DNA of 64,000 bases from Candidatus Nanoarchaeia archaeon (GCA_035290865.1 DATDTM010000012.1:11134-75133), one strand, 5' to 3'. Shown: positions 21,135 through 49,612, numbered from the stretch's first letter. Notes: generated by a model not told the origin, from the letters alone. Program-made: numbers and translations.

Positions 21135-22091
21135 ATGAGCCAAAAGAAACTCAGACCGAAATTTCCAAGCCTAGAATCAGATATCATCCTGGCTCCCATG
21201 GCTAAGATTACTGACCCTGCCTTTCGTAGCTTATGTAAAGAATACGGTTGCGGTTTGACTGTAACTGAAATGATTTCTGCTAATGATTTAGCTAGGAAAG
21301 ATAAACTGGCAATGAAAGAATTAGAACAACTGAAATCTGAATCCAAACCCAGATGCGTTCAATTGTATGGCCGGAATATAGACAATTTCATTACCGCTAC
21401 AAAAATGGTGCAAGGTTATGCAGAAGTTCTTGACTTAAATTTTGGCTGCCCTTATTATAAAATCATTGCCCAAGGTTTGGGCTGTGCCTTGATGGAACTT
21501 CCCGGAAAGATTAGGCAGATTGTTCAAAATGTAGTCGCAAATTCAAAAATACCCGTAACCTGCAAGATTCGCTTGGGGATGGATGCTAAAAATATTACCG
21601 TTTTAGAAGTAGCTAAGAAAGGTGAAGAATCTGGTGCAGTTATGATTACAGTCCATGCCCGCACCCAGAAACAAGAATATTCCGGAAAAGCAGATTGGAG
21701 TTGGATCAAGAAGGTTAAAGACACAGTCCAAATTCCAGTCTGCGGTAATGGAGATGTAAGAACTGTCGAAGATTATGTCAGATTGAAAAAAGAAACCGGC
21801 TGCGATTATGTCATGATTGGTCGAGGAGCGATCGGCAATCCATTTATTTTCAAACAGATAAATGAGTTCAATAAAACGGGAAAATATAAGATTCCTACCT
21901 CTGAAGAAAGAATCAAAGCTTTAAGAGAATATCTGGTTCTGGCAGAGAAGTTCGAAATAGAATTTGAACAGGTCAAGAAACAGGCGATGTATTTCTTAGA
22001 ACGAACTCTGCCGGATAAGCTGTTTAAAGCAGAGTTGGAAAAAGTTAAGAATAAGAAAGAGATGGGAATTCTACTAAACTCTTTTCTCTAA
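21135..22091 (+). CDS. dus: tRNA-dihydrouridine synthase (Dus), paralog 1
   Basis: ILAPMA..TD, LNFGCP, TVHARTQ and VMIGRGAIGNP motifs. Confidence 0.85.
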   Translation: MSQKKLRPKFPSLESDIILAPMAKITDPAFRSLCKEYGCGLTVTEMISANDLARKDKLAMKELEQLKSESKPRCVQLYGRNIDNFITATKMVQGYAEVLDLNFGCPYYKIIAQGLGCALMELPGKIRQIVQNVVANSKIPVTCKIRLGMDAKNITVLEVAKKGEESGAVMITVHARTQKQEYSGKADWSWIKKVKDTVQIPVCGNGDVRTVEDYVRLKKETGCDYVMIGRGAIGNPFIFKQINEFNKTGKYKIPTSEERIKALREYLVLAEKFEIEFEQVKKQAMYFLERTLPDKLFKAELEKVKNKKEMGILLNSFL

Positions 22092-22796
22092 TGAATCTTT
22101 GTTGCTAACTGCATCTTCCGACGACTCTACCCCGAGGACGCGGCCGTAGTTGTAGAAGTAGTAGACGCCGCCAAGGCTATTGTTGACGTAGTTGCCGCCA
22201 AGAACCAGCCAGCGCCCCTTCGCAACATTGTCTAAATCATTAACAATTCTAAGATGTATTTTACTTCCGATTCTCTTGCCAAAAGCATCTAAATATGATT
22301 CAGCACGCTCTTTCCCACCCAAGAAGGGAATCATCATTGGGTGAGCTAATGCTGTACTAACTTCAATATCACCATATTGGGAATTCATCAATTCTTGGTG
22401 GTCTCTGACAAAAACTGTCTTTTCGTCTTCCAAACCAAGCAATTTTAGGAATTCATCCTGAGGCATGAGCCCTGCACCATTACTCAATCCATTCTGATAA
22501 ACTTTTTTGAGATTTTCTAAGTTTGAAAAGTAATTCGAGCCATGATCATAAACAACCACGGCTTTACCGGCTCTGTTTCTGCCGGTAACTATAATACTCG
22601 GTTGAGTGAAATCATTCTGCCACAGATAATCATTGCAATTAGGAGTAATCTTGGCATCAACCAGTTCTGGTATGAACCAAGGCTGAGCTTTTGCATCAAC
22701 ACATTCAGTATAAGCTTTAAGAATGCCGTCTATTTCAAGTCTTTCAAAGACTTGAACATCTTGATTTCTGACAATCGGGGTGGTTATGGTTTGCAT
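22074..22796 (-). CDS. hypothetical protein, MQTITT paralog A
   Basis: ~85% aa identity to 23600..24520; contains a GC-rich codon patch; no known domain. Confidence 0.55.
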   Translation of the reverse strand: MQTITTPIVRNQDVQVFERLEIDGILKAYTECVDAKAQPWFIPELVDAKITPNCNDYLWQNDFTQPSIIVTGRNRAGKAVVVYDHGSNYFSNLENLKKVYQNGLSNGAGLMPQDEFLKLLGLEDEKTVFVRDHQELMNSQYGDIEVSTALAHPMMIPFLGGKERAESYLDAFGKRIGSKIHLRIVNDLDNVAKGRWLVLGGNYVNNSLGGVYYFYNYGRVLGVESSEDAVSNKDSLEKRV

Positions 22797-22968
22797 TTTA
22801 GTTTTACCTTTTTGGTTTTTATGATTTTTTTTATTATCTTTAAACAGGTTTAATGGAGGTTAAAAATTGGGCCTGTTTATAAACGTTTTGATGTTTGTTA
22901 CTATGAAATGGTCTCTTTTTGAGTAGTTTCGGGGAAAATTTTAAATATCCCCCCGATTACACCAGACC

Positions 22969-23262
22969 ATGGTCAACCAAACTATTAACTCTCTCAAAAA
23001 AATAATTGTACCCATCCTTAAGAAGAATGATGTAGTTAAAGCAGGAATTTTTGGTTCTTACGCCAGAGGAGAACAGAAGAAAAGCAGTGATATAGACCTG
23101 TTGATAAAATATGGCCGGAAGAAAAAGAGTTTGTTAGACCTGGTTCATTTAAAATATGCTTTAGAAGATAAATTGAACCAAAAAGTGGATATTTTAACCT
23201 ATAAATCAATAAATAATCTGTTTAAGAAAGAGATTCTGGACTCAGAGGTTAAAATATTATGA
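22969..23262 (+). CDS. MNT-type nucleotidyltransferase antitoxin
   Basis: GIFGSYARGE...SDIDLLI minimal NTase motif; overlaps the downstream HepT gene by 4 nt. Confidence 0.75.
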   Translation: MVNQTINSLKKIIVPILKKNDVVKAGIFGSYARGEQKKSSDIDLLIKYGRKKKSLLDLVHLKYALEDKLNQKVDILTYKSINNLFKKEILDSEVKIL

Positions 23263-23591
23263 AAAGCGATTTAAAATACCTTCAGCACATTCTGGGATCG
23301 ATTGACCTTATCGATAATTTTGTTTTGGGGCTGGATAAGAACAAATTTTCCAAGAATATAGAAAAACAGTTTGCAGTTATACGGGGATTAGAGATAATTG
23401 GTGAAGCGGTAAAGAATTTGTCCGAAGAAACAAAAATAAATCATCCAGAAATAGTCTGGCGAGAGATTGCCGGAACACGAGACATTTTAATTCATTCTTA
23501 CTTTAGTGTGGATTTGGACTTAGTATGGGATATTATCCAGAGTGATTTGCCCAAATTAAAAACACAGATCAAAATAATCTTAAAAAAATAA
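23259..23591 (+). CDS. HepT-like toxin (DUF86/HEPN)
   Basis: R-x4-H-x-Y motif (RDILIHSY) near the C-terminus. Confidence 0.75.
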   Translation: MKSDLKYLQHILGSIDLIDNFVLGLDKNKFSKNIEKQFAVIRGLEIIGEAVKNLSEETKINHPEIVWREIAGTRDILIHSYFSVDLDLVWDIIQSDLPKLKTQIKIILKK

Positions 23592-23599
23592 GAAATAAA

Positions 23600-24520
23600 T
23601 TAATTCTTCTTAGTCAATAACTGGTAGGCTTCCGGCGAGATCTGATCCTGCCTGATAACAACTAGACCATTGCCAACATCGTTGCCTTTGCCCAGAAGAG
23701 ATTCTAAAGATGAAACGGGATTTTTCAGCGCGTCCTCCTTCGGAGGAACGATAACCGGGCTCGTCGAGTCACTTCGTTCGTGACTTTGCTGCGACAAAGC
23801 TTCGTTCGCCACCGACGACGACTCTACCCCGAGGACACGGCCGTCGTTGCTGAAGCTGTAGCTGCCGCCAAGGTCGCCGCCAAGGTTGTAGTAGATGTAG
23901 TCGCCAAGGACCAGCCAGCGCCCCCTGGGAACTTCGCTTAAATCATTAGTAATTCCTAAATACATTTTACTTCCGATTTTTTTACCGAAAACATCTAAAT
24001 ATTGTTCAGCACGATCTTTCCCACCCAAAAAAGGAATTATCATAGGATGGGCCAAAGCTTTGCTGACTTTAATATCGCCACGAGCAGAATTCATCAATTC
24101 TTGGTGGTCTCTGACAAAAATCGTCTTTTCATCATTCAAACCAAGCAATTTCAAAAATTCTTCCTGAAGCATGAGCCCTGCACCATTACTCAATCCATTC
24201 TGGTAAACTTTTTTGAGATTTTCTAAGTCTGAAAAGTAATTCGAGCCATGGCTATAAACGACCACGGCTTTTCCGGCTCTGTTTCTGCCGGTAACTATGA
24301 TACTCGGTTGAGTGAAACCATTCTGCCACAAATAATCATTGCAATTAGGAGTAATCTTGGCATCAACCAGTTCTGGTATGAACCATGGCTGGCATTTTGC
24401 ATCAACACATTCAGTATAAGCTTTAAGAATACCGTCTGTTTCAAGTCTTTCAAAGACCTGAAGGTCTTGGTTTCTGACGCTGACAATCGGGGTGGTTATG
24501 GTTTGCATTTTTGGGTTCAC
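23600..24520 (-). CDS. hypothetical protein, MQTITT paralog B (C-terminal extension of uncertain reality)
   Basis: ~90% DNA identity to paralog A over the shared part. An extra ~60-aa tail lies over a GC-rich hairpin-rich stretch. Confidence 0.5.
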   Translation of the reverse strand: MNPKMQTITTPIVSVRNQDLQVFERLETDGILKAYTECVDAKCQPWFIPELVDAKITPNCNDYLWQNGFTQPSIIVTGRNRAGKAVVVYSHGSNYFSDLENLKKVYQNGLSNGAGLMLQEEFLKLLGLNDEKTIFVRDHQELMNSARGDIKVSKALAHPMIIPFLGGKDRAEQYLDVFGKKIGSKMYLGITNDLSEVPRGRWLVLGDYIYYNLGGDLGGSYSFSNDGRVLGVESSSVANEALSQQSHERSDSTSPVIVPPKEDALKNPVSSLESLLGKGNDVGNGLVVIRQDQISPEAYQLLTKKN

Positions 24521-24716
24521 CTTTTTGAGTTTTGTAAATTAATTTTTAAATTTGTTTAATAAAAGATTAAAAAGAGGGTGGATTTATAAATGTTTTGGTT
24601 GTTTTACTACCCGATAGTAAATATCAATTCAGGGAGCAGATAACAACCTAAAAAGAGGTATCCGGTTACCTAATTGTCGGTAAAGCTTAAATATCAGTTC
24701 TGTTTCAAACAAGATA

Positions 24717-25331
24717 ATGATTACCAAAGAACAAATCAAAATTTTAGGTGTCTTCAACAAAGACCTCTTCACTAGTTTTACTTTCCGCCAGATTAAGGAG
24801 CAAAGCCAGCAGAAATCAAATAATGTCGTCCAGATAGCCCTAAAAGAATTCCAGAAACAAGATTTAGTAACTATAAAGAAAATTGGGAATGTTAAAACAT
24901 ACAACTTAAATTTAGACAACAATCTCACTTTATCTTATCTTAATCTGATCAATGAATTAGAAATCCGCCGTAAAATATTTCCCAAAGAGATCTTAGCCGA
25001 GATTAAAAAAAAGATCGAGAAGAAAAGCGAGTTCTTTATTTTAATTGTTTTTGGAAGCTATGCTAAAAATAAAGCTACAGAAAAATCTGATTTAGATCTA
25101 GCAGTTATTATCGAATCCGAACCAACAAAAAAAGAAATAGCCCCTTTATTAGAAACAATAAAAAGAAGAGAACTCAAACCCATAGATTATCATCTCTTCA
25201 CCAGAAGTGAGTTTTTAGAAATGCTTAAAGCAGATTATGAAAATATGGGCAAACAAATTTATAAAAACCATCTTATTTATTATGGTTATATCGAATTTTG
25301 CAATCTAATCCGGGGTATAAAAAATGGATGA
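24717..25331 (+). CDS. nucleotidyltransferase with N-terminal wHTH
   Basis: FGSYAKNKATEKSDLDLAVI NTase motif; overlaps the downstream HEPN ORF by 8 nt. Confidence 0.65.
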   Translation: MITKEQIKILGVFNKDLFTSFTFRQIKEQSQQKSNNVVQIALKEFQKQDLVTIKKIGNVKTYNLNLDNNLTLSYLNLINELEIRRKIFPKEILAEIKKKIEKKSEFFILIVFGSYAKNKATEKSDLDLAVIIESEPTKKEIAPLLETIKRRELKPIDYHLFTRSEFLEMLKADYENMGKQIYKNHLIYYGYIEFCNLIRGIKNG

Positions 25332-25809
25332 TAAATCCGAATTATATCTGCAGAGAGCAGAAAATGAACTGGTTGTTGCCCAGATGCTATTTCAAATCTC
25401 AAGTAATACTTTTCTCCAAAAAGAGCAATTTAAACTTGAAAAAGAATTTACTTTCTACAGCACCGTCATTGGTCATTCCTATTATTGTATCTTTTATTCT
25501 GCAAAAGCGATCTTAATCCAAAATGGGATTAAAACAGAAGCTCCTGAAGAACACAGAAAAACTTTAGAAGCCTTTGAGGACTTCTTAGTCAAATCTGGAA
25601 GACTAGATGTAGAATTATTGAAGATCTACAAAAAGATGGTAATTAGAGCAGAAGAACTATTAGAAATATTTTCTAGAGAAAAAGGAAAAAGAGGAGAATT
25701 CACTTACCGAAAACTACCACAGGCAAATTTAGACCCGGCCCAAGAATCTTTAGATAATGGGTTATTATTTTTTAAGAACATTAATGCAGTTTTAAGAAAG
25801 ATTAACTGA
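25324..25809 (+). CDS. HEPN-domain protein (partner of the upstream NTase)
   Basis: All-helical protein of HEPN-like length and gene order. Confidence 0.55.
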   Translation: MDDKSELYLQRAENELVVAQMLFQISSNTFLQKEQFKLEKEFTFYSTVIGHSYYCIFYSAKAILIQNGIKTEAPEEHRKTLEAFEDFLVKSGRLDVELLKIYKKMVIRAEELLEIFSREKGKRGEFTYRKLPQANLDPAQESLDNGLLFFKNINAVLRKIN

Positions 25810-25816
25810 TTACAAA

Positions 25817-26761
25817 ATGCCTCAACTTCCAAAACTTTCATCCGATACCATCCTCGCCCCCATGGCCGGCGTAACCGATGTAGCTTTTCGTGTGCTCTGC
25901 AGAAGGTCTGGCGCAGGATTAACTTGTACTGAAATGATTTCCGCTAATGCCCTCGCTAGAAGTAACCAAGCCACTTTAAAACTGATTAATCTGGCAGAGG
26001 AAGAGAAACCGCGAGTAATCCAGCTCTTCGGCCAGAATACTGATTGCCTGATTAAATCCGCACAATTCATAGAACAGAATAATCTTTGCGAAATCATCGA
26101 CCTAAACTTCGGCTGTCCGGCAGAAAAAATCATCCGTCAAGGTGCAGGCAGTGCTTTGTTGGAACGACCAAACAAGATTAAAGAGATTATAGAGGCAGTT
26201 ACTAAAGCGGTAAAGATTCCCGTAACTTGTAAATTAAGATTAGGGATCAGAACCAGTAACATTAATATCTTAAAAGTAGCTAAGATCTGTGAAGAAGCAG
26301 GCGCAAGTATGCTCACCATCCATGCCCGGACTCAGAACCAAGGTTATACCGGAACCGCGGATTGGTCTTGGATCAAGAAAGTTAAAGAAGCTGCTAAGAT
26401 TCCTGTTTGCGGTAATGGTGATGTCAGAACAGTTGAAGATTATGTGCGTATGAAAAAAGAAACCGGCTGTGATTATGTCATGATTGGGAGAGGCGCGATA
26501 GGCAATCCTTATTTGTTCAAACAAATCAGCGATTATAATAAAACCGGAAAATATTCTGAGAGAACTAAATCCCAGCAGATGGAAGATTTCTTTGCCTATC
26601 TTAAATTAGCCAAAAGATATAAAGTAGATTTCCAATATATCAGATTTCAGGCTATGGCCTTTACTAAAGGGCTGCCTGACTCTGCCCAGCTAAGATTGAA
26701 GTTGAGCAAGGTAAAGAATATAAAAGAGATTGAAAGAGTGATTGTACAGAAAGATTTATAA
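25817..26761 (+). CDS. dus: tRNA-dihydrouridine synthase (Dus), paralog 2
   Basis: Same Dus motifs; ~55% aa identity to paralog 1. Confidence 0.85.
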   Translation: MPQLPKLSSDTILAPMAGVTDVAFRVLCRRSGAGLTCTEMISANALARSNQATLKLINLAEEEKPRVIQLFGQNTDCLIKSAQFIEQNNLCEIIDLNFGCPAEKIIRQGAGSALLERPNKIKEIIEAVTKAVKIPVTCKLRLGIRTSNINILKVAKICEEAGASMLTIHARTQNQGYTGTADWSWIKKVKEAAKIPVCGNGDVRTVEDYVRMKKETGCDYVMIGRGAIGNPYLFKQISDYNKTGKYSERTKSQQMEDFFAYLKLAKRYKVDFQYIRFQAMAFTKGLPDSAQLRLKLSKVKNIKEIERVIVQKDL

Positions 26762-29899: not shown

Positions 29900-30181
29900 C
29901 TACTTCTTCGCCAGAGTTATCTCAATAGTGCTTACCCTTACAGTTCTTCCTTCTTGGTTTTCAAACTCTTCGCTATCTATCCGAATATCTTTTACACCTA
30001 CAGTATTATCCATAAACCTTTTCCTAGCTACTTCTGCAATATCTACTGCTCGGCTGATAAACTTTCCTCTGGCTTTGACTATTACCTCGCTTGAGCCTTT
30101 GCTGGTAAACTGCATTACCACACCCGTAACATAATTCATGAAAGGCTTGTTTCCGATAAAAATAGAATTGTCGTTAGCCAT
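29900..30181 (-). CDS. albA: Alba DNA/RNA-binding protein
   Basis: ~90-aa protein (IFIGNKPFMNYV...VVKARG...ISRAVDIAE) typical of Alba. Confidence 0.85.
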   Translation of the reverse strand: MANDNSIFIGNKPFMNYVTGVVMQFTSKGSSEVIVKARGKFISRAVDIAEVARKRFMDNTVGVKDIRIDSEEFENQEGRTVRVSTIEITLAKK

Positions 30182-30368
30182 GTTCTAGTCCCTCCATCTT
30201 TTTTCTATGATACACTCAGCAACTAGTCTGATTATAGCAAATGTGTTAAGTTTCCGTACATTTATTCACACATTTGCTATTAGGAGAAATGTTAAATAAA
30301 CTCAACATGCTGGTCTCGTAATGTTGCTACGGCAACATGTTCGTAAATTTAACACTTCGAGTATAAAT

Positions 30369-30557
30369 TTATTGCCCTTGTTTTTTCAGTCTGGTCATAT
30401 AACCAGCAATAATATTCCTCAACTTATTGGTATAAGTGTCCGCATATTTTGCAGTAAGGGCTTTATTCTGAGAGAAATCAGTAGTAAATTTATCTCCATG
30501 CTTGGCTAACAATTCTTTAGTTTTCCTTTTCAGTAAAGTTGATTTGATTCTACCCAT
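30369..30557 (-). CDS. rps17e: ribosomal protein S17e
   Basis: MGRIKSTLLKRKTKELL...NK N-terminus characteristic of S17e. Confidence 0.8.
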   Translation of the reverse strand: MGRIKSTLLKRKTKELLAKHGDKFTTDFSQNKALTAKYADTYTNKLRNIIAGYMTRLKKQGQ

Positions 30558-30676
30558 GTTAACTACTTTAAGAAGCAGGTATTTTATAAACCTTTCTTTT
30601 TTTATGCGTCAAAAGTCCAAGATACAAAAATAATAGTAAACTTTATAAATCAAGCCTTCAGTTTAGACTTCCAAAG

Positions 30677-30874
30677 ATGGAAGAAGCATCAGTTGAACCA
30701 ACCAGCCCGGGGCGCTTGAAAAAGTTTTTTAAGGAGACTATGCGGGTATTGCGTATTACCAAAAAACCTAATAAAGAAGAATATTTAACCAGCGTCAAGA
30801 TAACTGGGATTGGCATTGCCATTATTGGAGCTATTGGTTTCATCATCTTCCTCATCGTGCAATTATTTTTTTGA
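30677..30874 (+). CDS. secE: protein translocase subunit SecE/Sec61-gamma
   Basis: 65 aa with a single C-terminal TM helix; located immediately upstream of spt5 as in many archaea. Confidence 0.7.
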   Translation: MEEASVEPTSPGRLKKFFKETMRVLRITKKPNKEEYLTSVKITGIGIAIIGAIGFIIFLIVQLFF

Positions 30875-30900
30875 AATAAACCATAAACTTAACTCAAAAA

Positions 30901-31368
30901 ATGAGCAGCAGCAAAATCTTTGCCATCAGGACTTCAGCCAATCGGGAAGACCAAGTAGTAGACTTTTTTACCTCTAAATTACAGAAAGAGACCCAGCATG
31001 AAGTCTACTCCATTATCCGACCACATGGCATGAGAGGGTACATTTTCGTAGAGACCGCCTCTAAAGAGGCAGCTGATGCTGCTTTACAGAACGTGCCTTA
31101 CGCTCGAGGCATCTTACCTAAAGAAATTCCCTATCTAGAGATCGAACATATGCTCGAACAGGTTAAAGTCGAGGTAAATATTCTTAAAAACGATATTGTC
31201 GAAATTATTTCCGGTCCGTTCAAGAGAGAGAATGCCAAAGTCATCCGGATCAATAAGCAGAAAGAGGAAATTGTAGTAGAATTATTAGAATCGGCTGTGC
31301 CCATTCCCATCACCGTAAAGATAGACGCAGTAAAGGTTATCCGCAGGGAAAACTCAGAAGAAGCGTAA
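30901..31368 (+). CDS. spt5: transcription elongation factor Spt5 (NusG)
   Basis: NGN domain (IFAIRTSANRE) followed by KOW (GPFKRENAKVIRI). Confidence 0.8.
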   Translation: MSSSKIFAIRTSANREDQVVDFFTSKLQKETQHEVYSIIRPHGMRGYIFVETASKEAADAALQNVPYARGILPKEIPYLEIEHMLEQVKVEVNILKNDIVEIISGPFKRENAKVIRINKQKEEIVVELLESAVPIPITVKIDAVKVIRRENSEEA

Positions 31369-31370
31369 AC

Positions 31371-31685
31371 ATGGTTAAAACAGTTCTTTCGCTAGAGGAT
31401 ATTGATTTTTCTGGTTTTGAGTTGCCTCAGCCAGATTGCGCTTTATTTCCTATAGAAGCTGCTTTTCTGGAAGAAATATCCTGGAATTGCCTCTTGATTA
31501 GTTTAAAAAAAGCACCTGCTCTTACCGTCTTCAAGCATACTAATGGTTATTGTCCTTTAGGTAATTATGCCCTCGCTTATGCTTATGCAGCTCACGGAAG
31601 AAAAACAATTCCGGCAGAAGTGCTTCACCCGAATCATTTAGATATTCCTACTTACCTTAGAATGGGCTTAGAATTATTAGATTAG
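31371..31685 (+). CDS. hypothetical protein
   Basis: 104-aa ORF with no recognisable motif. Confidence 0.4.
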   Translation: MVKTVLSLEDIDFSGFELPQPDCALFPIEAAFLEEISWNCLLISLKKAPALTVFKHTNGYCPLGNYALAYAYAAHGRKTIPAEVLHPNHLDIPTYLRMGLELLD

Positions 31686-31699
31686 AAAAGGTTAAGAAA

Positions 31700-31948
31700 A
31701 TGTTACAGCTAAATTTAGAATTAGAAAAATTATTTTCTGTTTTAGAAAAGAATAAAGCCCAGAAAGTTTTAATCCAGCTTCCGGATGGATTAAAACCAAA
31801 AGCAAAAGATATCCAGGAAAAGATCAAAAAGAAATTTCCCAAAATTAGGTTAACTTTCTGGGCTGGCTCTTGTTATGGTGCTTGTGATGTTCCTAATGTT
31901 TCTGGCTACGATCTATTGGTCCAGTTTGGACATTCAGAGTGGAGATAA
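31700..31948 (+). pseudogene. dph2: diphthamide synthase Dph2, N-terminal fragment only (~80 of ~340 aa)
   Basis: KVLIQLPDGLKP...AGSCYGACDV...LLVQFGHSEW matches the Dph2 N-terminus. A stop follows and no continuation exists in any frame. Confidence 0.6.
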
Positions 31949-31979
31949 GACTTAGACCAATAACCAATTGTATCCCTGC

Positions 31980-32252
31980 CTAAAATCTCTCTCTCCCTCT
32001 TCTATCTTTAATTAAAACTTCTGGTAAAGAGGTATATTGAAAATTGTCCGTTAATGCTGCTTCGTAACTTTTTTGGGAAACTGGATAGACATAAATGACT
32101 GATTTTCCCGGAGCTTGACGAACTAAATGGCTTTTTATAGCCTTCTCTAGATTACCTAGAGCATCTTCCATACTTCCTCCTGTTCTTACCCCAAAAGTAT
32201 CCTCTAGCTGCAAATCTGGTGCTTTCTTTAACGGAACAACGCGATAGGTCAT
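31980..32252 (-). CDS. small protein, possible HicB-like (UPF0150) fold
   Basis: YRVV..FGVRTGGSMEDALGNLEKAIKSHL loosely matches HicB N-domain; no HicA partner found. Confidence 0.3.
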   Translation of the reverse strand: MTYRVVPLKKAPDLQLEDTFGVRTGGSMEDALGNLEKAIKSHLVRQAPGKSVIYVYPVSQKSYEAALTDNFQYTSLPEVLIKDRRGRERF

Positions 32253-32357
32253 TTTTCTCTGGAGAAACCAATTAGTTAATAAAGATTATTGTGATGGTGA
32301 AATGACCAATAGGATAGAGATAATTATTTAAATAAAAGATCAGTTTATTCTTTTCAT

Positions 32358-32473
32358 ACGGCTGTGGTCTAACGGCATGATCCGAGCTTCCCAAGCTTGT
32401 GGCCCGGGTTCAATCATACTCGCTAGCGTTAATAGCTTTCCACGCTAGAGCATTGAAAGTCCCGGCAGCCGTA
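32358..32473 (+). tRNA. tRNA-Gly(CCC) with 45-nt intron in the T-arm (after position 60)
   Basis: Acceptor ACGGCTG/CAGCCGT pairs perfectly. D-loop AACGGCA. Anticodon arm CGAGC-TTCCCAA-GCTTG. T-stem CCGGG/CCCGG, interrupted at 32416-32460 by an insert carrying its own stem. Confidence 0.7.
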
Positions 32474-32500
32474 ATTCAATATTATAAATTAAGAGAAAAA

Positions 32501-33073
32501 ATGAAAATCAAAGAGATCGAAGTAGAAATCAGAGGCAGACTGGATTCTAAAAGCTACGCTGAACTAAAACTGTTTTTAGAAAAAAATGGTACTCACCACG
32601 CCAGCCAAGAACGGGAAATGTATTTATTACAGGATTATCCAGGTTATACCCCGGATTTTGTCGACCGTCCGATGGACATTAGGTTGCGCAATACCAACGG
32701 CCAGTGTGAAATTATGATGAAATGCGCTGTCCAAGGCGCACGCGAAGAAGTATCTCTAGAACTGAAAGATTCAAATTTGGAAAAAGCTAAGAAAGTTCTG
32801 AAAGGTTTAGGCTGCGCCAAGGCCATTTGGATGCACCGCCTAAAAGTGATTTATAAATACAAAGATATAGAATGGTCACTGGTGATTGCGCCCAACGATA
32901 TCCGCTATTACGAGGCAGAGTTGGTCGTGGCTAATGATCAGGAAGTAGCTCAAGCAAACCAAAGATTGGTCCAAGTGGCAACTGAACTCAAACTAGAAGT
33001 GTTAGACGATACCGGCACAAGAGCTTTAATTGAGAAACTGGATAAAGAAGCTAATAAACCGGTCCAACTTTAA
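32501..33073 (+). CDS. CYTH-domain (triphosphate tunnel) protein
   Basis: EIEVEIRGRL N-terminal beta-strand motif. Start trimmed from 32399 because the upstream part overlaps the tRNA. Confidence 0.65.
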   Translation: MKIKEIEVEIRGRLDSKSYAELKLFLEKNGTHHASQEREMYLLQDYPGYTPDFVDRPMDIRLRNTNGQCEIMMKCAVQGAREEVSLELKDSNLEKAKKVLKGLGCAKAIWMHRLKVIYKYKDIEWSLVIAPNDIRYYEAELVVANDQEVAQANQRLVQVATELKLEVLDDTGTRALIEKLDKEANKPVQL

Positions 33074-33075
33074 AT

Positions 33076-33229
33076 GTCAAAATGCTCGCGACCACCACCG
33101 GTCAGAGACCGGTGGCATGCTCGCCCTTCGGGCTCGGGTCGCTCACATCATAAGAGCTGAGCATTTTGACTTAGGAATGTAACTAGTGTTTAAACCACTG
33201 GTGAAAACACCAGTGGAATGACTTTATTC
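33076..33229. repeat. MITE-like element (family 2; TIR GTCAAAATGCTC) plus CCACTGGTG hairpin module
   Basis: 12-bp perfect terminal inverted repeats at 33076/33170. Core CACCACCGGTC-AGA-GACCGGTGG is shared with the 40191 and 63120 copies. Confidence 0.7.
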
Positions 33230-33291
33230 AAAACCAACAGCTTTTTAAACTATCCGAATATTCTTAATCTAATAAAAAGAGGTGATTAAAA

Positions 33292-33498
33292 ATGTGCATT
33301 TATGGATGGAAAGGATTAGTATTTTGTCTGTTATTGCTGCTAAACGTTTTTGTCTGGCCTTTATGGCAAGGCGTAGATGGGTGGATTGCATACTTAGCAG
33401 TATTAGGAGTGCTCTGGTGCCTATTAACTTTGATTTGGCCAAAATGGTTCAATGATAATGGTTATAGTGTAAAAGCCCCAGCTAAAAAGAAGAAATAA
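33292..33498 (+). CDS. small membrane protein (hypothetical)
   Basis: 68 aa, two TM helices; AGAGGTGA Shine-Dalgarno upstream. Confidence 0.35.
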   Translation: MCIYGWKGLVFCLLLLLNVFVWPLWQGVDGWIAYLAVLGVLWCLLTLIWPKWFNDNGYSVKAPAKKKK

Positions 33499-33554
33499 AT
33501 CTTTCTTTTTTTTCTCTTTTTCTAGATTATTTTTATAAAGAAGTAACCATTTCC

Positions 33555-33755
33555 CTTTCTAAGCCTCATGTTGTTTGCCAGCGGGGCATACTCAGAAACA
33601 AGTTTCTGGTCGCCGCGCTGTCTCGTGCTGCTCGCCAGCGTGGCACAATCCGGTACTGCGGCGGATAGAATCAAGCCGAATCTCGAATCCGGATGGAAAA
33701 CCGCTCCCGCAAGGGACTCTCGGTTCAAATGAGAGATAAGAAAAACTTATTTTTC
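33555..33755 (+). ncRNA. candidate structured ncRNA, identity unknown
   Basis: ~55% GC island in a 33% GC genome. TTTTTATAAA TATA-like box ~25 bp upstream; oligo-T (TTATTTTT) at the 3' end. Several hairpins (CAGAAAC/GTTTCTG, CTCTCGGTTCAAATGAGAG). Confidence 0.35.
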
Positions 33756-33777
33756 GGAAGGTCCGAGCGCTGGCGTT

Positions 33778-34140
33778 TTATTTTCTTCTTTTAGTCACTC
33801 TACCCTTAACCTGCTCTTTAATCTTCAAAGCTTTCTCATGAGTCTTTTCTCTTAAAGCTTTAGTCGCATCATAGATCTTATGCGAACCTCGCTTGAGATG
33901 CTCATGATAATAATGATAATGAAAATATCTCCGCAAGCTGTCCGCATATTCTTTCCCTACCCACCACACTCCTAAGATCAATAAAGGCCAAGAAAAAATA
34001 TAAATCACCGCTGAAAGCATCTGAAGATAAGAATCATAAAAATAAAAGATAAAGGTTATTTTACTCACCAAACCCAGAATTAAACTTAACAAGATCAGAA
34101 TAATACCCCAATAAAACTTTAATGAATATTTTAGCTCCAT
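33778..34140 (-). CDS. hypothetical membrane protein
   Basis: 120 aa with two TM helices and a basic His-rich tail. Confidence 0.45.
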   Translation of the reverse strand: MELKYSLKFYWGIILILLSLILGLVSKITFIFYFYDSYLQMLSAVIYIFSWPLLILGVWWVGKEYADSLRRYFHYHYYHEHLKRGSHKIYDATKALREKTHEKALKIKEQVKGRVTKRRK

Positions 34141-34178
34141 TTTAAGTAAGATGGTTTAAGTCTAATTAAACTTTTCCC

Positions 34179-35450
34179 CTAACCAAACTTAATTTCTTTA
34201 ACCGCTTTAATTTTCTCTTTGAAATATTCTTCTTTCAGACAGTTCTTCACCTGATTCTCCAAGCTAGGAAATTCTACTTTTATTTTAGCCATTATCTTTC
34301 CATCACTTTCAAAAGTATTCTTATTCTTCTTCTTGAAATCTTTGACAAACTCTTTTAATTTCAAGGGCGGACCAGGCCGAATTTCTTCCTCAGGCAAGAG
34401 CTTTTTAGCTAAAAAGAAATAAAACACTGCTTTTTTATCCCAATCCCAGCCGGATTGCTTTATCTCAAATTTGCTTAATTCTGTCTTCAGAAACTCAAAA
34501 GCTTTGACTAATTTAGCCCCCACTACATCTTCTTTCCCTGCCAAAGGCCCTATAGTAAGATAAACTAAATTATACTTATTTTCTTTCTCTCGCAATCTTT
34601 TAAAGCTGATTTCTTCCCGCTCAAAGTATTTCTGGTCTGGATGCTCCAGATATTCTCTGGCCACTTTCTTTAAAGAAATAAACTTTTCCAGAGATAAAGC
34701 CGCAGCTGCATTCCGGTCTTTATCTACCGGATCAATCACTACAATAGGAGATTGCAGCTTAGACTTATTGATCTGAAAAAAAACATCTTTCCCTTTATAA
34801 TATTCTTTAATATCAATCACTTCATTGATACCCATGGAGATAGCTGCTTTCAAGAAACCCTCAAAAGAACCGTATTTAGTGATTAAGATTTCTAGCACAT
34901 AGCCGCTGAAGCCAGAGATATAAGATTCAGCCCCGTATAATTGGTTGGCTTTACAGAACTGTTTAGCTAAACGAATTTCATCTTTCAATTTTTTAGCCTG
35001 GTGATTGACCCAGATTGCATGTAAAAGAGAAATATCTGTGATATTCAAAGCTTCCTCAACTTTTTTGATCTTTATAATCGGAACAAGCTCAAAATTGTAT
35101 TTTTGATAGACCAATTGGAAATAATCCCTGCTTCCATGTAATCTATTTAGTTTAACTTTAGGAAAAGCTCTTTTCAAAGCAGCATAAAGAAGTTCAGATA
35201 ATTCCGCTGATTTATCTTTATATTGCTGGTAATCGTATTGCACAAAAATATCAATATCATGGATACCAGAAAGCCAGGTATCTTTTTCCCCACTTCCTCC
35301 TAAGATGGCCTTAGCTCCGCTTAAGTTTGAATTTAATTTCTTCAAGAAAGAGTTCACCGCTGCTTTAACTTTCTGCGATTCAGTCTTATTTGGCTTGATT
35401 TTCTCTAAGACTTTCTTCTCTACTGCTTTTCTGAGGATTAAGTTAGCCAT
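34179..35450 (-). CDS. cca: archaeal CCA-adding enzyme (class I tRNA nucleotidyltransferase)
   Basis: ILGGSGEKDTWLSGIHDIDIFV matches archaeal Cca GSxARGTxL..SDIDIFV; length 423 aa. Confidence 0.8.
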   Translation of the reverse strand: MANLILRKAVEKKVLEKIKPNKTESQKVKAAVNSFLKKLNSNLSGAKAILGGSGEKDTWLSGIHDIDIFVQYDYQQYKDKSAELSELLYAALKRAFPKVKLNRLHGSRDYFQLVYQKYNFELVPIIKIKKVEEALNITDISLLHAIWVNHQAKKLKDEIRLAKQFCKANQLYGAESYISGFSGYVLEILITKYGSFEGFLKAAISMGINEVIDIKEYYKGKDVFFQINKSKLQSPIVVIDPVDKDRNAAAALSLEKFISLKKVAREYLEHPDQKYFEREEISFKRLREKENKYNLVYLTIGPLAGKEDVVGAKLVKAFEFLKTELSKFEIKQSGWDWDKKAVFYFFLAKKLLPEEEIRPGPPLKLKEFVKDFKKKNKNTFESDGKIMAKIKVEFPSLENQVKNCLKEEYFKEKIKAVKEIKFG

Positions 35451-35712
35451 ATCGGTAAAGAAAAGGTGGTTAGTTATATTAAACTTTGCGATGAGGGATA
35501 TATAGATAATTGCGTTGATTATGTTATTCGTTTTGGCAATTATCTATATTAGAAATGCGTTTATTGTGTCACAAAATCAACGCATTTCTCTATATTTAAT
35601 CCAGATTCTGTTCATCCCCTCGCGGGGGGTTGGTGGGTGGTTACTTACTTAACAGTGATGACTAAGCCAAAAACTTTATAAACAGAACCTCTTTCTAGCC
35701 TAAAATATAGCT

Positions 35713-37263
35713 ATGGCAACGAAAAAAGAAGAAGGTGCTCCTCAAGCAGAGCCTCAAACTGAACCTACTTTTCTGAAAGGCGTAGCAACGATGGCTACTC
35801 TGGCAGAAGAAGCGAGCCGCAAGTTAAGGACGGAAGTTCATGGGGACAGCTTTAGATTCAAAGATTTAGATTTATCTTACTTATTTCCTCAAGCCGTTGG
35901 TTCTGTGGAATATTTGGAGAGATTAGAGCCGGTAGTCAGCGAGTATTTAGCTCAAACAGCACGATTCGGGTTAGAGCAGGGCGACCATCGCGCCGGCACT
36001 CCTATTGAAGAGAATACTGCACACTATGAATCTACAGTTACAGAATGGATGGCAAAAGTTTACACCCCCAGAAAAGAAGAGATTGATAAAAAAGTGGATG
36101 ATGCTTTTCTTAGAATTACTAACCATGCTACTCAAGAATTAAGAGATCTTGCTTTTGCTCTTTGCTCTGGCTCTGCGGAGATAGATAGAGCTTTAGCAGT
36201 GGTGGGAAGGCCAGAATTAAGTTTAGAAGAGCTAGCCGGAAAAAAATCTGAACTTAAAACCAGATTCTATGAGGCGGAACTTCCCCATCCTGAAGATTTA
36301 ATCAAATTGTACGAATTATGTTTCAATGCCGAAGTCAAACAGCGAGGCTGGATGGAGTTAAAGGATGAGAAATTAGCTGAAGCTTTGGAAATGGAAAACG
36401 TTCCCTTAGAAATGTTTGCGAAATATACTGGAAGGGAAGTAAAACTGCCGGAAAAGCAGCCGAATGAAGAATTAAAGCCCAAAAAGAAAAGGAAACGTAG
36501 GCAGATACTGGATATCTTGAGCGGTTCAACGCCGTCAGCTAGTACGGGAATAAGAATTAGCTTAACCGGACAGAATTCAGAATTTACTGCCCGCGACCAT
36601 GTGGAAGGCTCAAATTATGTTAAAGCGTTACGAGCTCTGCGTACTTCTTACGCTAAGAAAAAATGTCCCGCTCAACCAACTATCACCATTAACGGAAAAA
36701 TTTATGTTCGACCGCCGACATTGTATGAAGTTCTAACTGCAAGAGTGAATGATTTCAATAGCAAGACGAATCCAGACGGAACTCCTCGTGAGAGTGAAGA
36801 TCTTCTGCGTTTCTTTAATGTAGCTTTAGATTCCTGTACCGGTAGGCAGTATCGTGGTGGAACCAGCAAATTCAAATTAATTCCCATCTGCCCACAATTA
36901 GTCGCTTTATCTGCTTTGCCTCGAGAGAATTATTTGGAATTACCTTACGCTGATTCTGTAGGTGAAGAAAGAGATAGCAATAATGGGAAGTATAATGTTA
37001 ATTTAAGCAAGAGTGAAGTGCTGAAGCATCCGGACTGGATTTTTTTAGCTAACGGAGACCGCTCTTTGCTTGGCGCTACTTTTGATATTTTTACACAGGT
37101 TTGCGGAGGCGATAAGGATTGGAGGGGAATGGCTGTTTACATCAATCCTTTGCCGCAAAAAGATGCATTGAGGTCGCTGTGCGTCAACAGCCACAGCTAT
37201 CAAAGTGATGCTGACGGCGGGGACTTGCACTACTGCAGCCGCTTCCTGTACGGGTATAGTTAA
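35713..37263 (+). CDS. hypothetical protein, compositionally foreign (GC-rich codons)
   Basis: 516-aa ORF with much higher GC and GC-ending codons than its neighbours. KKKRKRRQ basic patch; no recognisable domain. Confidence 0.55.
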   Translation: MATKKEEGAPQAEPQTEPTFLKGVATMATLAEEASRKLRTEVHGDSFRFKDLDLSYLFPQAVGSVEYLERLEPVVSEYLAQTARFGLEQGDHRAGTPIEENTAHYESTVTEWMAKVYTPRKEEIDKKVDDAFLRITNHATQELRDLAFALCSGSAEIDRALAVVGRPELSLEELAGKKSELKTRFYEAELPHPEDLIKLYELCFNAEVKQRGWMELKDEKLAEALEMENVPLEMFAKYTGREVKLPEKQPNEELKPKKKRKRRQILDILSGSTPSASTGIRISLTGQNSEFTARDHVEGSNYVKALRALRTSYAKKKCPAQPTITINGKIYVRPPTLYEVLTARVNDFNSKTNPDGTPRESEDLLRFFNVALDSCTGRQYRGGTSKFKLIPICPQLVALSALPRENYLELPYADSVGEERDSNNGKYNVNLSKSEVLKHPDWIFLANGDRSLLGATFDIFTQVCGGDKDWRGMAVYINPLPQKDALRSLCVNSHSYQSDADGGDLHYCSRFLYGYS

Positions 37264-37380
37264 CCAAGAAAGTTCTTTAGCAGAAAGAACGCCACTTGGT
37301 TTACTATAATGAGGTCGCAAGCCGAATGTAGCCCATCGTCGTCGCACAAAAATGTTTAGGTTTGCGAAAACTTTTTATTG

Positions 37381-38634
37381 CTAATCTAACCCATAGAAAC
37401 AAAACTTCCAGAGTGGCATCCAAAATATATTTCCTTTCTGCCCTTCCACATCTCTGGTAATCAAAAAAGCTTTTTTTATCTTTAAGCTTCCCCCATACTT
37501 TTCTAAGAAAAATTCCACCCAACGGAGATCATTTTTTCTAATCTCTGAAGAATATTTTACCTCAACCGGCAATGATTCTTTCAGGAAATCTATCTCTTTT
37601 TCTTTATCTCTCCAGTAATACTTTGCTTCCAGCTCAAATCCAACTAAACTCTCCGCATACTTGTCCTCTGAAACTTCGTAGGGGAGAGTAAGGCAAGGAT
37701 GGTAAGGATAAATTTTAGATAACTTGCGGGAAGCAGCCCGTAGTGAAGGGCGGAAATTTAATACCCTCTTTATCAGGAAAGAGAATTCTAAGTAAAATAA
37801 AGCTTTATATAATGTGGCTTTCGCTCTGCCCAACTCTTTAGCTAAATCATCTATGGAAATGATTTGACCGGGCTGGCCCAGAAATAAATTAACTAATTTT
37901 TCCAGCAATAAGATATCTACATCTTTGAATTCTTTGGGAATGTCTTTCAGGAGAATAGGCTCGATGACTGCTTCCCTTATGTAATTTTTAATAAACAAAA
38001 TGTCCGCTTCTTTTACTAAAGCAGGGAAAGGGCGGTAGAGGAAAGCACGAAATTCTTTTTTTAGCAATTCTTCATACAAAGCCGGCTTGTTTTCATCGAA
38101 TTTAGTTCCTTTTAGCTGTAGAAATTCTTTAAAATGAAGCGGCTTTAATTCGTAGTACATTGCTCTCCCAGCCAGGCTTTTCTTTGCCTCAGCAAGAATA
38201 GGCAGAGAAGCTGATCCCGAGACTACGATTTTAATATTATGATAATGGTCATAAAGTAATTTGGTGCTGGCTACCCACTCCTTCGCTTTTTGGATCTCGT
38301 CTAAGAATAAATACACTTTCTCTTTCCGGAAATCTATCCCTGTTAAAGATGAGTATTCCTCCAGAATTTCTTCTATTCTTCTGCTTTGAAAGTTGGGCTC
38401 ATCAAAGGTACAGTATAAGATTTGAAGCGGGGAAACATTACTTTTAATTAGATCTTCTATTAGCTGAAAGATTAGAGTAGACTTTCCCACTCGGCGCAAA
38501 CCAACAACTACCGTAATCATTCTGCGCGAGAGATCCTTTTGCAGGTTAAAGAACAGTTCCCGGCGTACTGCGGGAACCATTTCTGGCTTTACTTTACTTT
38601 CTGTCCACCAAGGGTTTAACTCATTTAGCTTCAT
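37381..38634 (-). CDS. archaeal ATPase (AAA_14 + DUF4143 family)
   Basis: NPWW N-terminus, Walker A GLRRVGKST, Walker B LFLDEIQ; C-terminal DUF4143-like region. Confidence 0.75.
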   Translation of the reverse strand: MKLNELNPWWTESKVKPEMVPAVRRELFFNLQKDLSRRMITVVVGLRRVGKSTLIFQLIEDLIKSNVSPLQILYCTFDEPNFQSRRIEEILEEYSSLTGIDFRKEKVYLFLDEIQKAKEWVASTKLLYDHYHNIKIVVSGSASLPILAEAKKSLAGRAMYYELKPLHFKEFLQLKGTKFDENKPALYEELLKKEFRAFLYRPFPALVKEADILFIKNYIREAVIEPILLKDIPKEFKDVDILLLEKLVNLFLGQPGQIISIDDLAKELGRAKATLYKALFYLEFSFLIKRVLNFRPSLRAASRKLSKIYPYHPCLTLPYEVSEDKYAESLVGFELEAKYYWRDKEKEIDFLKESLPVEVKYSSEIRKNDLRWVEFFLEKYGGSLKIKKAFLITRDVEGQKGNIFWMPLWKFCFYGLD

Positions 38635-38778
38635 TATTTGTTTTGTAACAGAACGAATATATAAGCTTTTCGTTCTTCAATAAAACAAATCTATGTGACA
38701 ATAGGGGACAGCAAGAAAACGCCAGCGGCATACAAAAAACAGAAAGTTTTAAATACTACAACTTTGTAGTATGGAGTA

Positions 38779-39930
38779 ATGGCTGAAGAATTACCTTACT
38801 TTGCTGGAAAAGAAATTCCCCCAAAATATTTAGGAGAATACTTTTTCAATCGCGGGAAAGAGCTAAAAGAATTAAAATGGAAATTAGAACGAGTTCCCCC
38901 GTTAAACTTTGCTCTGTACGGCCAAAGGCGGGTCGGAAAAACTTCTTTGATTGAAAAATTAAAACAAGAATTAGAAAAAAAGAATTTACCCATTTTCATT
39001 AAATGCGAGGAATTACTGCCTCTTGATGAACTTACTTTTTTAGAAAATCTCACTCTTAGGCTATTAGAGGAGTATAGCAAATTAAGCCCGCTTCTGGGAG
39101 TTAAAAAAACGATGCAGGACTTGGTAACTACCACCAAAATTGGATTAGAAATGGCTGACCTTACCTTTTGGCTGAGGTTTGGCGAAAAAAAAATAACTCT
39201 TAAAGAAGCTCTTGACAAAAGCTTTGATTTAATTAATAAAATAAGCTTGAAATCACAGAAAAAAGTAATTATCTTTCTCGATGAATTTCAAGAGCTGTTT
39301 GGGTTTGGAGATAAATTCTTATGGGCGTTGAGGGCAAAAATTGCCTCCAGCCAGGCTTCCTTTGTAGTCAGTTCTTCCTGGCATCGCTTTAAAGAGGAAT
39401 TAACCCATGAAAAAAGGCCTTTCTTTAATTTTTTTGAGACTTATGAGATAAAAGCCGTACCCAAAGAAGAGGCGCGGAGCTTTCTGCTCAAAAGGGCCCA
39501 GAAGTTCAACCTTTGTTTTGATGGAGCGGTTTTAGATAAAATTTTGGAAGTTTCTGAATGTAAGCCGTTCTATCTGCAGCTTTTAGCCTTAAAATGTTAT
39601 ATCTTAAGTTTGCCTAAGAAAAAGGTTACTTTAAGTGTTTTTGAAGCTGCTTTAAAAGAAACTATCACTTCCATTCCTGCCCATCTGATAACCGGTTTTG
39701 AGCGCCTGAGGGGAAGGAACAAAGAAGTCTTCCTGACTCTGTGCCTTTTTGACTTTAAAAAACCAGCTGAGATTGCATCAAAAATCGGTTTAGATGCAAA
39801 GAATGTTATCGTCATTCTGCATCGATTGATTAAAGAGCACGACTTAGTTAAAAAAGAAGAAAATAATTATTTTGTCGCAGATAAATTCCTTAAAGAATAT
39901 GTGAAGCTCCAGTATACTACATTATTGTAG
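38779..39930 (+). CDS. archaeal ATPase (Arch_ATPase/PF01637-like) with C-terminal wHTH
   Basis: Walker A GQRRVGKTS, Walker B IIFLDEFQ; transcribed divergently from 37381..38634. Confidence 0.7.
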   Translation: MAEELPYFAGKEIPPKYLGEYFFNRGKELKELKWKLERVPPLNFALYGQRRVGKTSLIEKLKQELEKKNLPIFIKCEELLPLDELTFLENLTLRLLEEYSKLSPLLGVKKTMQDLVTTTKIGLEMADLTFWLRFGEKKITLKEALDKSFDLINKISLKSQKKVIIFLDEFQELFGFGDKFLWALRAKIASSQASFVVSSSWHRFKEELTHEKRPFFNFFETYEIKAVPKEEARSFLLKRAQKFNLCFDGAVLDKILEVSECKPFYLQLLALKCYILSLPKKKVTLSVFEAALKETITSIPAHLITGFERLRGRNKEVFLTLCLFDFKKPAEIASKIGLDAKNVIVILHRLIKEHDLVKKEENNYFVADKFLKEYVKLQYTTLL

Positions 39931-39985
39931 TACTACAAGTTTGTAGTATATTAAAGATTTTTTTTCTCCAAACGTTAGAGTTATA

Positions 39986-40188
39986 GTAACGAAAACTTGC
40001 CTGCTCATGCCTAGGGTCACTAACGTTCTCAAGTTCTCTGACGAGAACTATCCACGGGCTAAAGCCCGTGGCTTTACGACACTCGCTTACACTGGCAAGT
40101 CCCTGAAAAATTGAAAATTTTTGGGGCACAGAAAATCTTTGATTTTCTTGTGTTTCGGAACAGAAATTTAGCGCCCTAAAGGGTGGAG
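39986..40188. repeat. ~200-bp structured repeat (family 1), copy B
   Basis: About 95% identical to 11209-11412. The terminal hairpin is truncated by the adjacent MITE. Confidence 0.75.
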
Positions 40189-45565: not shown

Positions 45566-45850
45566 GGGTCAGCTAGGCTGGCGCGCTAGCCCTGCGTTGT
45601 TACCGTGAATGAGCTTTACACGGAGCCGAAGCCTGATAAAAGGGCCAGTTTGGTTTTGTTGGTCCTGATCCGCTTTGCAGACAGCTTGTCCTTTGGGATG
45701 GACTTGCTGGGAATCTGGTCAGATCCGGAAGGAAGCAGCCATAACCTGTAGGTTTCATGTTCAGAGGGTCGCAAGCTCGAGAGGCTTTCAGGAACAAACC
45801 AATGGAGCTATATTGGTTCGATTGTCGGGCCTGCCCCTAAAGTTTCTTTT
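45566..45850 (+). ncRNA. signal recognition particle RNA (7S RNA)
   Basis: GGUCAGAUCCGGAAGGAAGCAGCCAUAACC matches the helix-8 core of 4.5S/7S RNA (GGUCAGGUCCGGAAGGAAGCAGCC). GC-rich island with a TATA-like box ~30 bp upstream. Confidence 0.75.
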
Positions 45851-49403: not shown

Positions 49404-49612
49404 TAAGTAAGAAGAATAATTTAGAAGTATTTAATGGTTGCGATTAGGTGACTTTAATTAAGTCTTAAGTATCTAAAATCTCTCCCGCCTCTGCAATGTT
49501 TCATCGTTTACCTTTTGCATAAAACGAACTATTGGGCCTAAGTGAGAGTGACCTCCTCCCCGCACTAAAGTGCGGAGATTTCTGGCTCACTTTGTTAAAA
49601 AATCTGTATTCA

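Follow-up and report, generated by a model that had tools for sequence, protein, structure and literature searches.

The window, i.e., the whole stretch of 64,000 nucleotides of archaeal DNA that was analysed, contains at positions 32358-32473 of the plus strand the sole tRNA gene found in these 64 kb, a tRNA-Gly(CCC) gene whose T-arm is interrupted by 45 nucleotides (Table 1). Each of the cloverleaf elements listed in the initial annotation is readable in the sequence, and the interruption does contain, as had been stated, a helix of its own built up from the hexamers CTAGCG and CGCTAG. The identity set of tRNA-Gly comprises an NCC anticodon with C35 and C36, the C2-G71 and G3-C70 pairs and the discriminator A73. 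All of these residues are present in the window tRNA, which belongs to class I and possesses a short variable region. The acceptor stem begins with A1-U72, a first pair unusual in elongator tRNA, where G1-C72 would be usual; the same A1-U72 pair occurs in 14 relatives (loci L007-L040). The putative promoter located upstream of the gene has counterparts in other members of the group, since TTTAWATA-type motifs occur 31-38 nt upstream of the tRNA-Gly of L022, L036, L041, L046, L049, L050, L056 and L065.

Table 1. Coordinates of the tRNA-Gly(CCC) gene, of the predicted bulge-helix-bulge (BHB) motif and of other features of the window.
Feature	Position	Strand	Description	Basis
TATA-box-like sequence	32327..32334	+	TTTAAATA; 31 nt upstream of tRNA position 1, putative promoter	
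5' exon	32358..32414	+	tRNA positions 1-59, T-loop part UUCAAU	sequence, ARAGORN after in-silico splicing
Acceptor 5' strand	32358-32364	+	ACGGCTG; 7 bp with CAGCCGT at 32466-32472	
D-arm	within 5' exon	+	GTCT-AACGGCA-TGAT	read from sequence
Anticodon arm	anticodon 32390-32392	+	stem CGAGC/GCTTG, loop TTCCCAA, anticodon CCC	read from sequence
Variable region	within 5' exon	+	4 nt	read from sequence
T-stem	32404-32408 with 32461-32465	+	CCGGG with CCCGG; doubles as BHB outer helix	
BHB central helix	32409..32412 with 32454..32457	+	4 bp, exon UUCA (T-loop 54-57) with intron UGAA	
5' bulge	32413..32415	+	A-U/C, 3 nt; predicted cut 32414/32415, after the second nucleotide	
Intron, tRNA position 59/60	32415..32459	+	45 nt, CATACTCGCTAGCGTTAATAGCTTTCCACGCTAGAGCATTGAAAG	strict BHB scan, relatives
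Inner intron helix and loop	32416..32453	+	pairs 32416-17/32452-53 (A32416-U32453, U32417-A32452), 32419-20/32449-50 (C-G, U-A), 32423-28/32443-48 (CUAGCG/CGCUAG); loop 32429-32442	
3' bulge	32458..32460	+	A-G/U, 3 nt; predicted cut 32459/32460, after the second nucleotide	
3' exon	32460..32473	+	tRNA positions 60-73: U60, CCCGG, CAGCCGT, A73	sequence, ARAGORN
Predicted spliced exon junction	32414-32460	+	GGGUUCAAU/UCCCGG	
Discriminator A73	32473	+	CCA not encoded	read from sequence
CYTH-domain gene	32501..33073	+	190 aa; not part of the tRNA	Pfam CYTH from residue 5
CCA-adding enzyme gene	34179-35450	-		tRNA_NucTransf2, E = 3.5e-36
Archaeal SRP RNA	45566-45837	+	113 bits	Rfam
HgcC-family RNA, sub-threshold	49535-49660	-	23 bits vs gathering score 50	

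The 3' part of the tRNA is covered by an open reading frame (32399..33073) which starts with a GTG at 32399, in frame with an ATG at 32501, an overlap correctly pointed out in the initial annotation. The first 34 codons of this frame are non-coding and correspond to a spurious N-terminal extension of a gene encoding a 190-aa product, in which a Pfam CYTH domain is readily recognized, in line with the CYTH label that the gene had been given. The start at ATG 32501 is assigned on the basis of the position of the domain, of the 190-aa form in which the product is recorded on 21 contigs, and of contig L005, on which the CYTH gene is 99.5% identical while the DNA upstream of ~32485 is unrelated and contains no tRNA. 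Another strain contig, L003, carries the substitution C32469A, which breaks the acceptor pair G4-C69, and continues with unrelated DNA after 33228. Owing to these breaks in L003 and L005, the CYTH gene sits in variable contexts. Contigs identical to the window come from groundwater metagenomes of the Rifle aquifer. Together with the archaeal SRP RNA, the nearest relatives of the locus, which are Woesearchaeota, Nanoarchaeia and Pacearchaeota MAGs, assign the DNA to a DPANN archaeon. An oligo-T run, found 3' of the tRNA in most relatives, is absent from the window, and the start codon of CYTH lies 28 nt downstream, so that the tRNA may be co-transcribed with the CYTH gene.

On the other side of the tRNA, a gene pair for SecE and Spt5/NusG lies upstream in the window, in L022/L066 and in L016 with the same orientation, and in L015/L053 with the tRNA inverted. 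The Spt5 of L022 is only ~76% identical to that of the window, although the tRNA exons of both loci coincide at 70 of 71 positions. The segment 31371-31948 plus 31980-32252 contains an 82-aa Dph2 fragment, a 104-aa ORF devoid of any Pfam match and a 90-aa ORF on the minus strand, and no similarity to the Dph2-fragment segment was seen in the relatives that share the SecE-Spt5-tRNA synteny. The fragment is indeed a truncated Dph2, as had been proposed, since it covers only positions 1-56 of the Diphthamide_syn profile (302 positions); the HicB-like label attached to the 90-aa ORF is not retained, because this ORF has no Pfam match. The suggestion that the tRNA sits at the edge of an inserted region holds in part. 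It agrees with the divergence of the strain contigs at 33228 and 12 nt beyond the tRNA, and with relatives in which neither the CYTH gene nor the 90-aa ORF nor the Dph2 fragment adjoins the tRNA, but a repeat of the tRNA 3' end is missing: a search of the window for a second copy of its terminal 14 or 21 nt found none even when up to 2-3 mismatches were tolerated, and a repeat scan of positions 30000-40000 returned nothing relevant.

The gene escapes the usual detection tools. ARAGORN calls no tRNA on the raw 64-kb window and nothing on the precursor sequence with its intron options switched on, and the search of the window with Rfam at the gathering threshold yields the SRP RNA alone, with no tRNA at 32358-32473. 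When Rfam is used in E-value mode, the unspliced gene reaches 15.4 bits versus a gathering score of 29 for the tRNA model. In this sub-threshold alignment, positions 32358-32402 are properly assigned to positions 1-45 of the model; the acceptor is mis-paired and the molecule is left unclosed. As soon as the 45 nt are deleted in silico, a tRNA-Gly(CCC) of 71 nt is called by ARAGORN, with all stems intact in its drawing, which bears out the complete cloverleaf described in the initial annotation. A close term of comparison consists of the uninterrupted tRNA-Gly(CCC) genes of DPANN metagenome-assembled genomes (MAGs), e.g., L016, L007 and L014, which contain no intron and score 57-62 bits with the Rfam tRNA model. 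The tRNA of L016 (61.6 bits), ACGGCTGTGGTCTAACGGTATGATTCGAGCTTCCCAAGCTTGTGACCCGGGTTCAATTCCCGGCAGCCGTA, is identical to the window tRNA spliced at 59/60 at 68 of 71 positions, exhibits the same D-arm and the same A1-U72 pair, and has the T-loop UUCAAUU. Judged from the two sequences, this match is far beyond chance.

The position of the intron was deduced from the geometry of the BHB motif. In archaea, this motif consists of two bulges of 3 nt on opposite strands, separated by 4 bp, and in either bulge cleavage follows the second nucleotide. This cleavage rule was compared with the canonical 37/38 geometry and with the relatives of the window gene. A scan for the strict form of the motif (hBHBh') places the two sites at 32414/32415 and 32459/32460, next to an outer helix of 5 bp. 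At a low threshold, the same scan also returns many chance matches in the flanking DNA, so that the motif taken alone constitutes weak evidence, the weight being carried by its position and by the relatives. In the unconstrained minimum free energy (MFE) fold, for the precursor as well as for the T-arm, the BHB is absent, whereas the acceptor, anticodon and T stems are recovered together with the intron hairpin. Because of this absence, the explicit BHB rule and a constrained fold were used; with the BHB imposed, the T-arm lies 2.4 kcal/mol above the MFE, versus 0-5 kcal/mol in five homologues. Strict hBHBh' geometry can be modelled at the exon-intron junctions by scan and by constrained fold alike, in agreement with the BHB intron suggested in the initial annotation. 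The latter had rightly recognized a non-canonical site in the T-arm; its boundaries, 32416-32460 or 60/61, are one base off, and the intron at 59/60 extends over 32415-32459. According to the BHB geometry and to the T60 of the relatives, it is U32460 and not C32415 that is retained as nucleotide 60, and the mature T-loop therefore reads UUCAAUU.

Relatives were collected without reference to the T-arm by scanning GTDB species, each represented by a single genome, with a pattern restricted to the D-arm and the anticodon loop, the T-arm being left unconstrained. The 34 loci thus retrieved belong mostly to Woesearchaeota, Nanoarchaeia and Pacearchaeota MAGs. In 27 of them, the T-loop is an uninterrupted heptanucleotide (TTCAATT, TTCGATT and similar) with T60 in all 27, and these uninterrupted relatives are called tRNA-Gly(CCC) by ARAGORN. 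An insertion of the 59/60 type occurs in 5 of the 35 genes of this unbiased set, namely in L015, L022, L026, L036 and the window. In the four relatives, the insertion begins directly after TTCRAT and ends with YGAA-NN followed by T-CCCGG. The strict BHB scan accepts L015, L022 and L026 and rejects L036 on account of a single A/A mismatch adjoining the 5' bulge, as read by hand. Within the same set, the nucleotide preceding C61 is T in 5/5 genes with a T-loop intron as well as in 27/27 uninterrupted genes. Splicing in silico at 59/60, and also at 37/38 where a second intron occurs, converts all of the T-loop-intron genes into a 71-nt tRNA called as tRNA-Gly.

A second collection was obtained by scanning metagenomes with a pattern made of the T-arm and the 3' half of the BHB motif. 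It contains 29 further loci with mostly CCC, and some UCC or GCC, anticodons. Every locus that is not cut by a contig end exhibits a matching 5' acceptor strand and an upstream tRNA-Gly body, neither of which was required by the pattern. When these loci are combined with those from the genomes and with the window, 27 distinct T-loop introns of 17-48 nt are obtained, which differ in sequence and share the same geometry. The helix abutting the 5' bulge, which is not imposed by the pattern either, sums up to 91 bp over the 27 introns versus 16.7 +/- 5.0 bp in shuffled sequences (0/5000). The first intron nucleotide is A in 15 introns, T in 7, C in 4 and G in 1, while position 60 is always T; such a variability of the first nucleotide and of the intron nucleotides of the 3' bulge, combined with a constant T60, is what the 59/60 assignment predicts.

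Two of these introns are homologous to that of the window. In L022/L066 (Woesearchaeota UBA10204 and a JGI contig, respectively), the intron also measures 45 nt, of which 36 are identical, and the tRNA-Gly contains an additional intron at 37/38. In L045/L061, a tRNA-Gly(UCC) is interrupted by a homologue of 46 nt (34/46 identical). The pairs of the BHB are invariant across the three homologous introns; a compensatory change is visible at 32425:32446 (A-U, G.U and G-C, respectively), which is not significant, since 329 of 500 shuffles equal it. Between the CCC and UCC isoacceptors, the intron is ~74% identical and the exons ~80%, the latter figure being counted by hand. The occurrence of a homologous intron in CCC and UCC genes suggests, as far as sequence comparison goes, that it is older than the duplication which gave rise to both isoacceptors, or that it has moved between genes.

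Up to three introns are found in a single tRNA-Gly(CCC) gene of this group, one in the D-loop behind GGTA, one at 37/38 and one at 59/60, in the metagenome contigs L051 (Ga0209541_10002799) and L056 (Ga0209541_10124112), and also in L046 and L060. After splicing by hand, these three-intron relatives are called by ARAGORN as tRNA-Gly of 71 nt.

Taken together, splicing restores the cloverleaf of the window gene, an hBHBh' motif coincides with the junctions, and the site is conserved in relatives while the intron itself varies. The locus is thus very probably a functional tRNA-Gly(CCC) gene of a Woesearchaeota/Nanoarchaeia-like DPANN archaeon, with a 45-nt intron at position 59/60. The motif, the splicing in silico and the use of the same site in other DPANN tRNA-Gly genes all speak for the reading put forward in the initial annotation, a tRNA-Gly(CCC) with a non-canonical BHB intron in the T-arm.

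Other explanations were considered for the interrupted T-arm. If the arrival of 45 nt in the T-loop, such as the remnant of a mobile element, had turned the gene into a tRNA-Gly pseudogene, this would account for the rejection of the gene by standard finders, for the absence of an oligo-T terminator, for a neighbourhood rearranged between strains and for the broken acceptor pair in L003. It would not be expected, however, that the insertion falls exactly where a strict BHB forms, that it is devoid of terminal repeats and of a target-site duplication, and that ~27 distinct tRNA-Gly genes contain insertions, unrelated in sequence and length, at this very site and with the same geometry. In addition, the exons have remained almost unchanged with respect to L022 (70/71) in spite of the divergence of the Spt5 proteins (only ~76%), and in L022, L026 and L015, the three genomes for which every intron of the locus was tested, the gene with the T-loop intron is the sole tRNA-Gly(CCC) copy seen at the locus. 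With stems intact, exons conserved and the insertion bounded by the BHB, the C32469A substitution of L003 is the only sign in favour of a decayed gene, and inactivation is very unlikely. It is likewise extremely unlikely that the intron is genuine but located at 60/61 (32416-32460), with UUCAAUC as the mature T-loop. Deletion of the latter segment also produces a 71-nt tRNA-Gly(CCC) according to ARAGORN, yet the 3' bulge would then take in C61 and break the G53-C61 pair. Moreover, T and never C is found at position 60 in the 27/27 uninterrupted relatives, and among the homologues it is the first intron nucleotide that varies, the nucleotide before C61 being always T. The 60/61 junction was rejected on two grounds, no BHB being drawable for it and T60 occurring throughout the relatives.

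The 3' ends of tRNA genes are common integration sites, and the window tRNA could have served as an attachment site for a CYTH-containing segment, the interruption being a recombination scar instead of an intron. The breakpoints of the strain contigs, 12 nt past the tRNA and at 33228, are in keeping with such an event, and in L019 the 3' end of a tRNA-Gly is directly repeated at a distance of ~85 nt (16 nt). Against this stands the finding that the tRNA 3' end, even with mismatches allowed, occurs only once in the window, which thus contains no direct repeat of the kind left at attachment sites. The 45 nt are located inside the T-loop and are conserved in L022 and L045 in spite of different downstream DNA, and an integration beside the tRNA would have to be considered separately from the intron. 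A recombination scar accordingly has next to no probability, and the 45 nt are best regarded as an intron at 59/60.

Introns at this position have been described in the ARMAN-2 archaeon (Ca. Micrarchaeum), where 59/60 BHB introns adopt a relaxed form in pre-tRNA-Cys(GCA) and a strict one in pre-tRNA-Pro(GGG) (Fujishima et al. 2011, PMC3239211). The site and the superphylum (DPANN) are the same as for the window gene, and the tRNA-Pro(GGG) intron shares the strict hBHBh' form. The two cases differ by the tRNA species concerned (Cys/Pro versus Gly), by the lineage and by the intron sequences, which are unrelated. They probably differ also by the splicing endonuclease, which from the literature alone (PMC5829648) would be of the alpha4 type with an L3 loop in the lineage of the window, compared with the epsilon2 type of ARMAN-2. 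In the Thermoproteales, a tRNA gene may contain as many as three introns, at non-canonical positions (Sugahara et al. 2008, reviewed in PMC4033280). Three introns also occur in the window relatives L051 and L056, whereas the window gene itself has one; besides, the Thermoproteales belong to the TACK archaea and the window gene to the DPANN. Non-canonical BHB introns are known from several archaeal lineages, in line with the initial annotation. With respect to the canonical archaeal intron at 37/38, the window intron displays the same succession of a 3-nt bulge, a 4-bp helix and a 3-nt bulge, from which the use of the same enzymes is deduced. The difference lies in the helices, since the outer helix corresponds to the T-stem and the central helix involves T-loop positions 54-57, instead of the stem and the loop of the anticodon arm. 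The window intron adds a further case to the 59/60 BHB introns known in archaea, which will come as no surprise to the specialist.

From the analysis as a whole we infer that the gene is transcribed, and that its transcript is cleaved, ligated and used in translation. Archaeal BHB introns are cut out by the endonuclease EndA, and the exons are joined by RtcB. Transcription would start from the TATA-like promoter located ~31 nt upstream, and the precursor would form the strict hBHBh' motif, with the succession of the T-stem, the AG/U bulge, the helix between positions 54-57 and UGAA, the AU/C bulge and the inner helix. The archaeal EndA is predicted to cut after the second nucleotide of each 3-nt bulge, and a ligase of the RtcB type would then join U59 to U60, resulting in a 71-nt tRNA with the T-loop UUCAAUU. 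The released intron would probably be circular. The CCA end would be added post-transcriptionally, and the window happens to contain a gene for the CCA-adding enzyme at a distance of 1.7 kb downstream. Pfam detected neither an EndA nor an RtcB domain in 39 scanned ORFs of the window, as expected for 64 kb of a genome of ~1 Mb.

In terms of annotation, the window tRNA is missed by both ARAGORN and the curated thresholds of Rfam and is partly swallowed by an over-extended ORF call. Missed genes of this kind make the tRNA sets of small DPANN genomes look incomplete. In this respect, the tRNA sets of Woesearchaeota and Pacearchaeota were reported to be incomplete and undetected disrupted genes were suspected, and DPANN lineages possessing a loop-bearing alpha4 EndA were found to contain more disrupted tRNA genes (Kaneta et al. 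2018, PMC5829648). The T-loop intron at 59/60 is widespread in the tRNA-Gly genes of the group, where it is sometimes accompanied by introns of the D-loop and of the anticodon loop, which extends to the DPANN a multi-intron pattern best known in the Thermoproteales. The T-loop-intron genes of DPANN also represent natural substrates for exploring the substrate range of splicing endonucleases.

It is unlikely that the 59/60 intron represents an old, selectively maintained feature of tRNA-Gly across the Woesearchaeota-type DPANN, as opposed to a neutral passenger. Such a reading is suggested by the homologous 45/46-nt intron that CCC and UCC genes share, conserved to about the same degree as their exons. 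If it were selected, its possible roles could consist of splitting the T-arm and 3' end targeted by integrases, or of guiding or ordering the modification of the T-loop. The former role corresponds to the Randau-Soll idea (cited in PMC4033280).

A few additional observations concern the relatives and the remaining part of the window. L019 (~1649-1820; Nanoarchaeota MAG PPR_0046) contains a tRNA-Gly(CCC) without intron whose 3'-terminal 16 nt, ATTCCCGGCTGGCGTA, recur ~85 nt downstream, and L028 possesses the same tRNA without the extra segment. From its sequence, the repeat resembles an att-type duplication, of the sort that insertion into the 3' end of a tRNA gene leaves behind, in which case the 3' end of tRNA-Gly would be an insertion target in the group. 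Elsewhere in the window, two dihydrouridine synthase (Dus) paralogues (21135-22091 and 25817-26761) flank a segment of ~3.7 kb, which contains two paralogous ORFs (22074-22796 and 23600-24508) with near-identical N-termini and no assigned function, a nucleotidyltransferase/HepT pair (22969-23591) and a Pol-beta NTase/HEPN pair (24717-25809). This segment, within 21135-26761, has the appearance of a toxin-antitoxin island that was duplicated or inserted.

Some contigs with a tRNA-Gly of the Woesearchaeota type are filed under Nomurabacteria (L016) or under Methanosarcinales MAGs (among L007, L036, L021, L028 and L029); these are probably binning errors, L016 carrying an archaeal SecE-Spt5. Finally, L036 contains at 1380-1523 of the plus strand, 2 kb upstream of its T-loop-intron tRNA-Gly, a second tRNA of 144 nt (42.6 bits, Rfam), which probably contains an intron as well.
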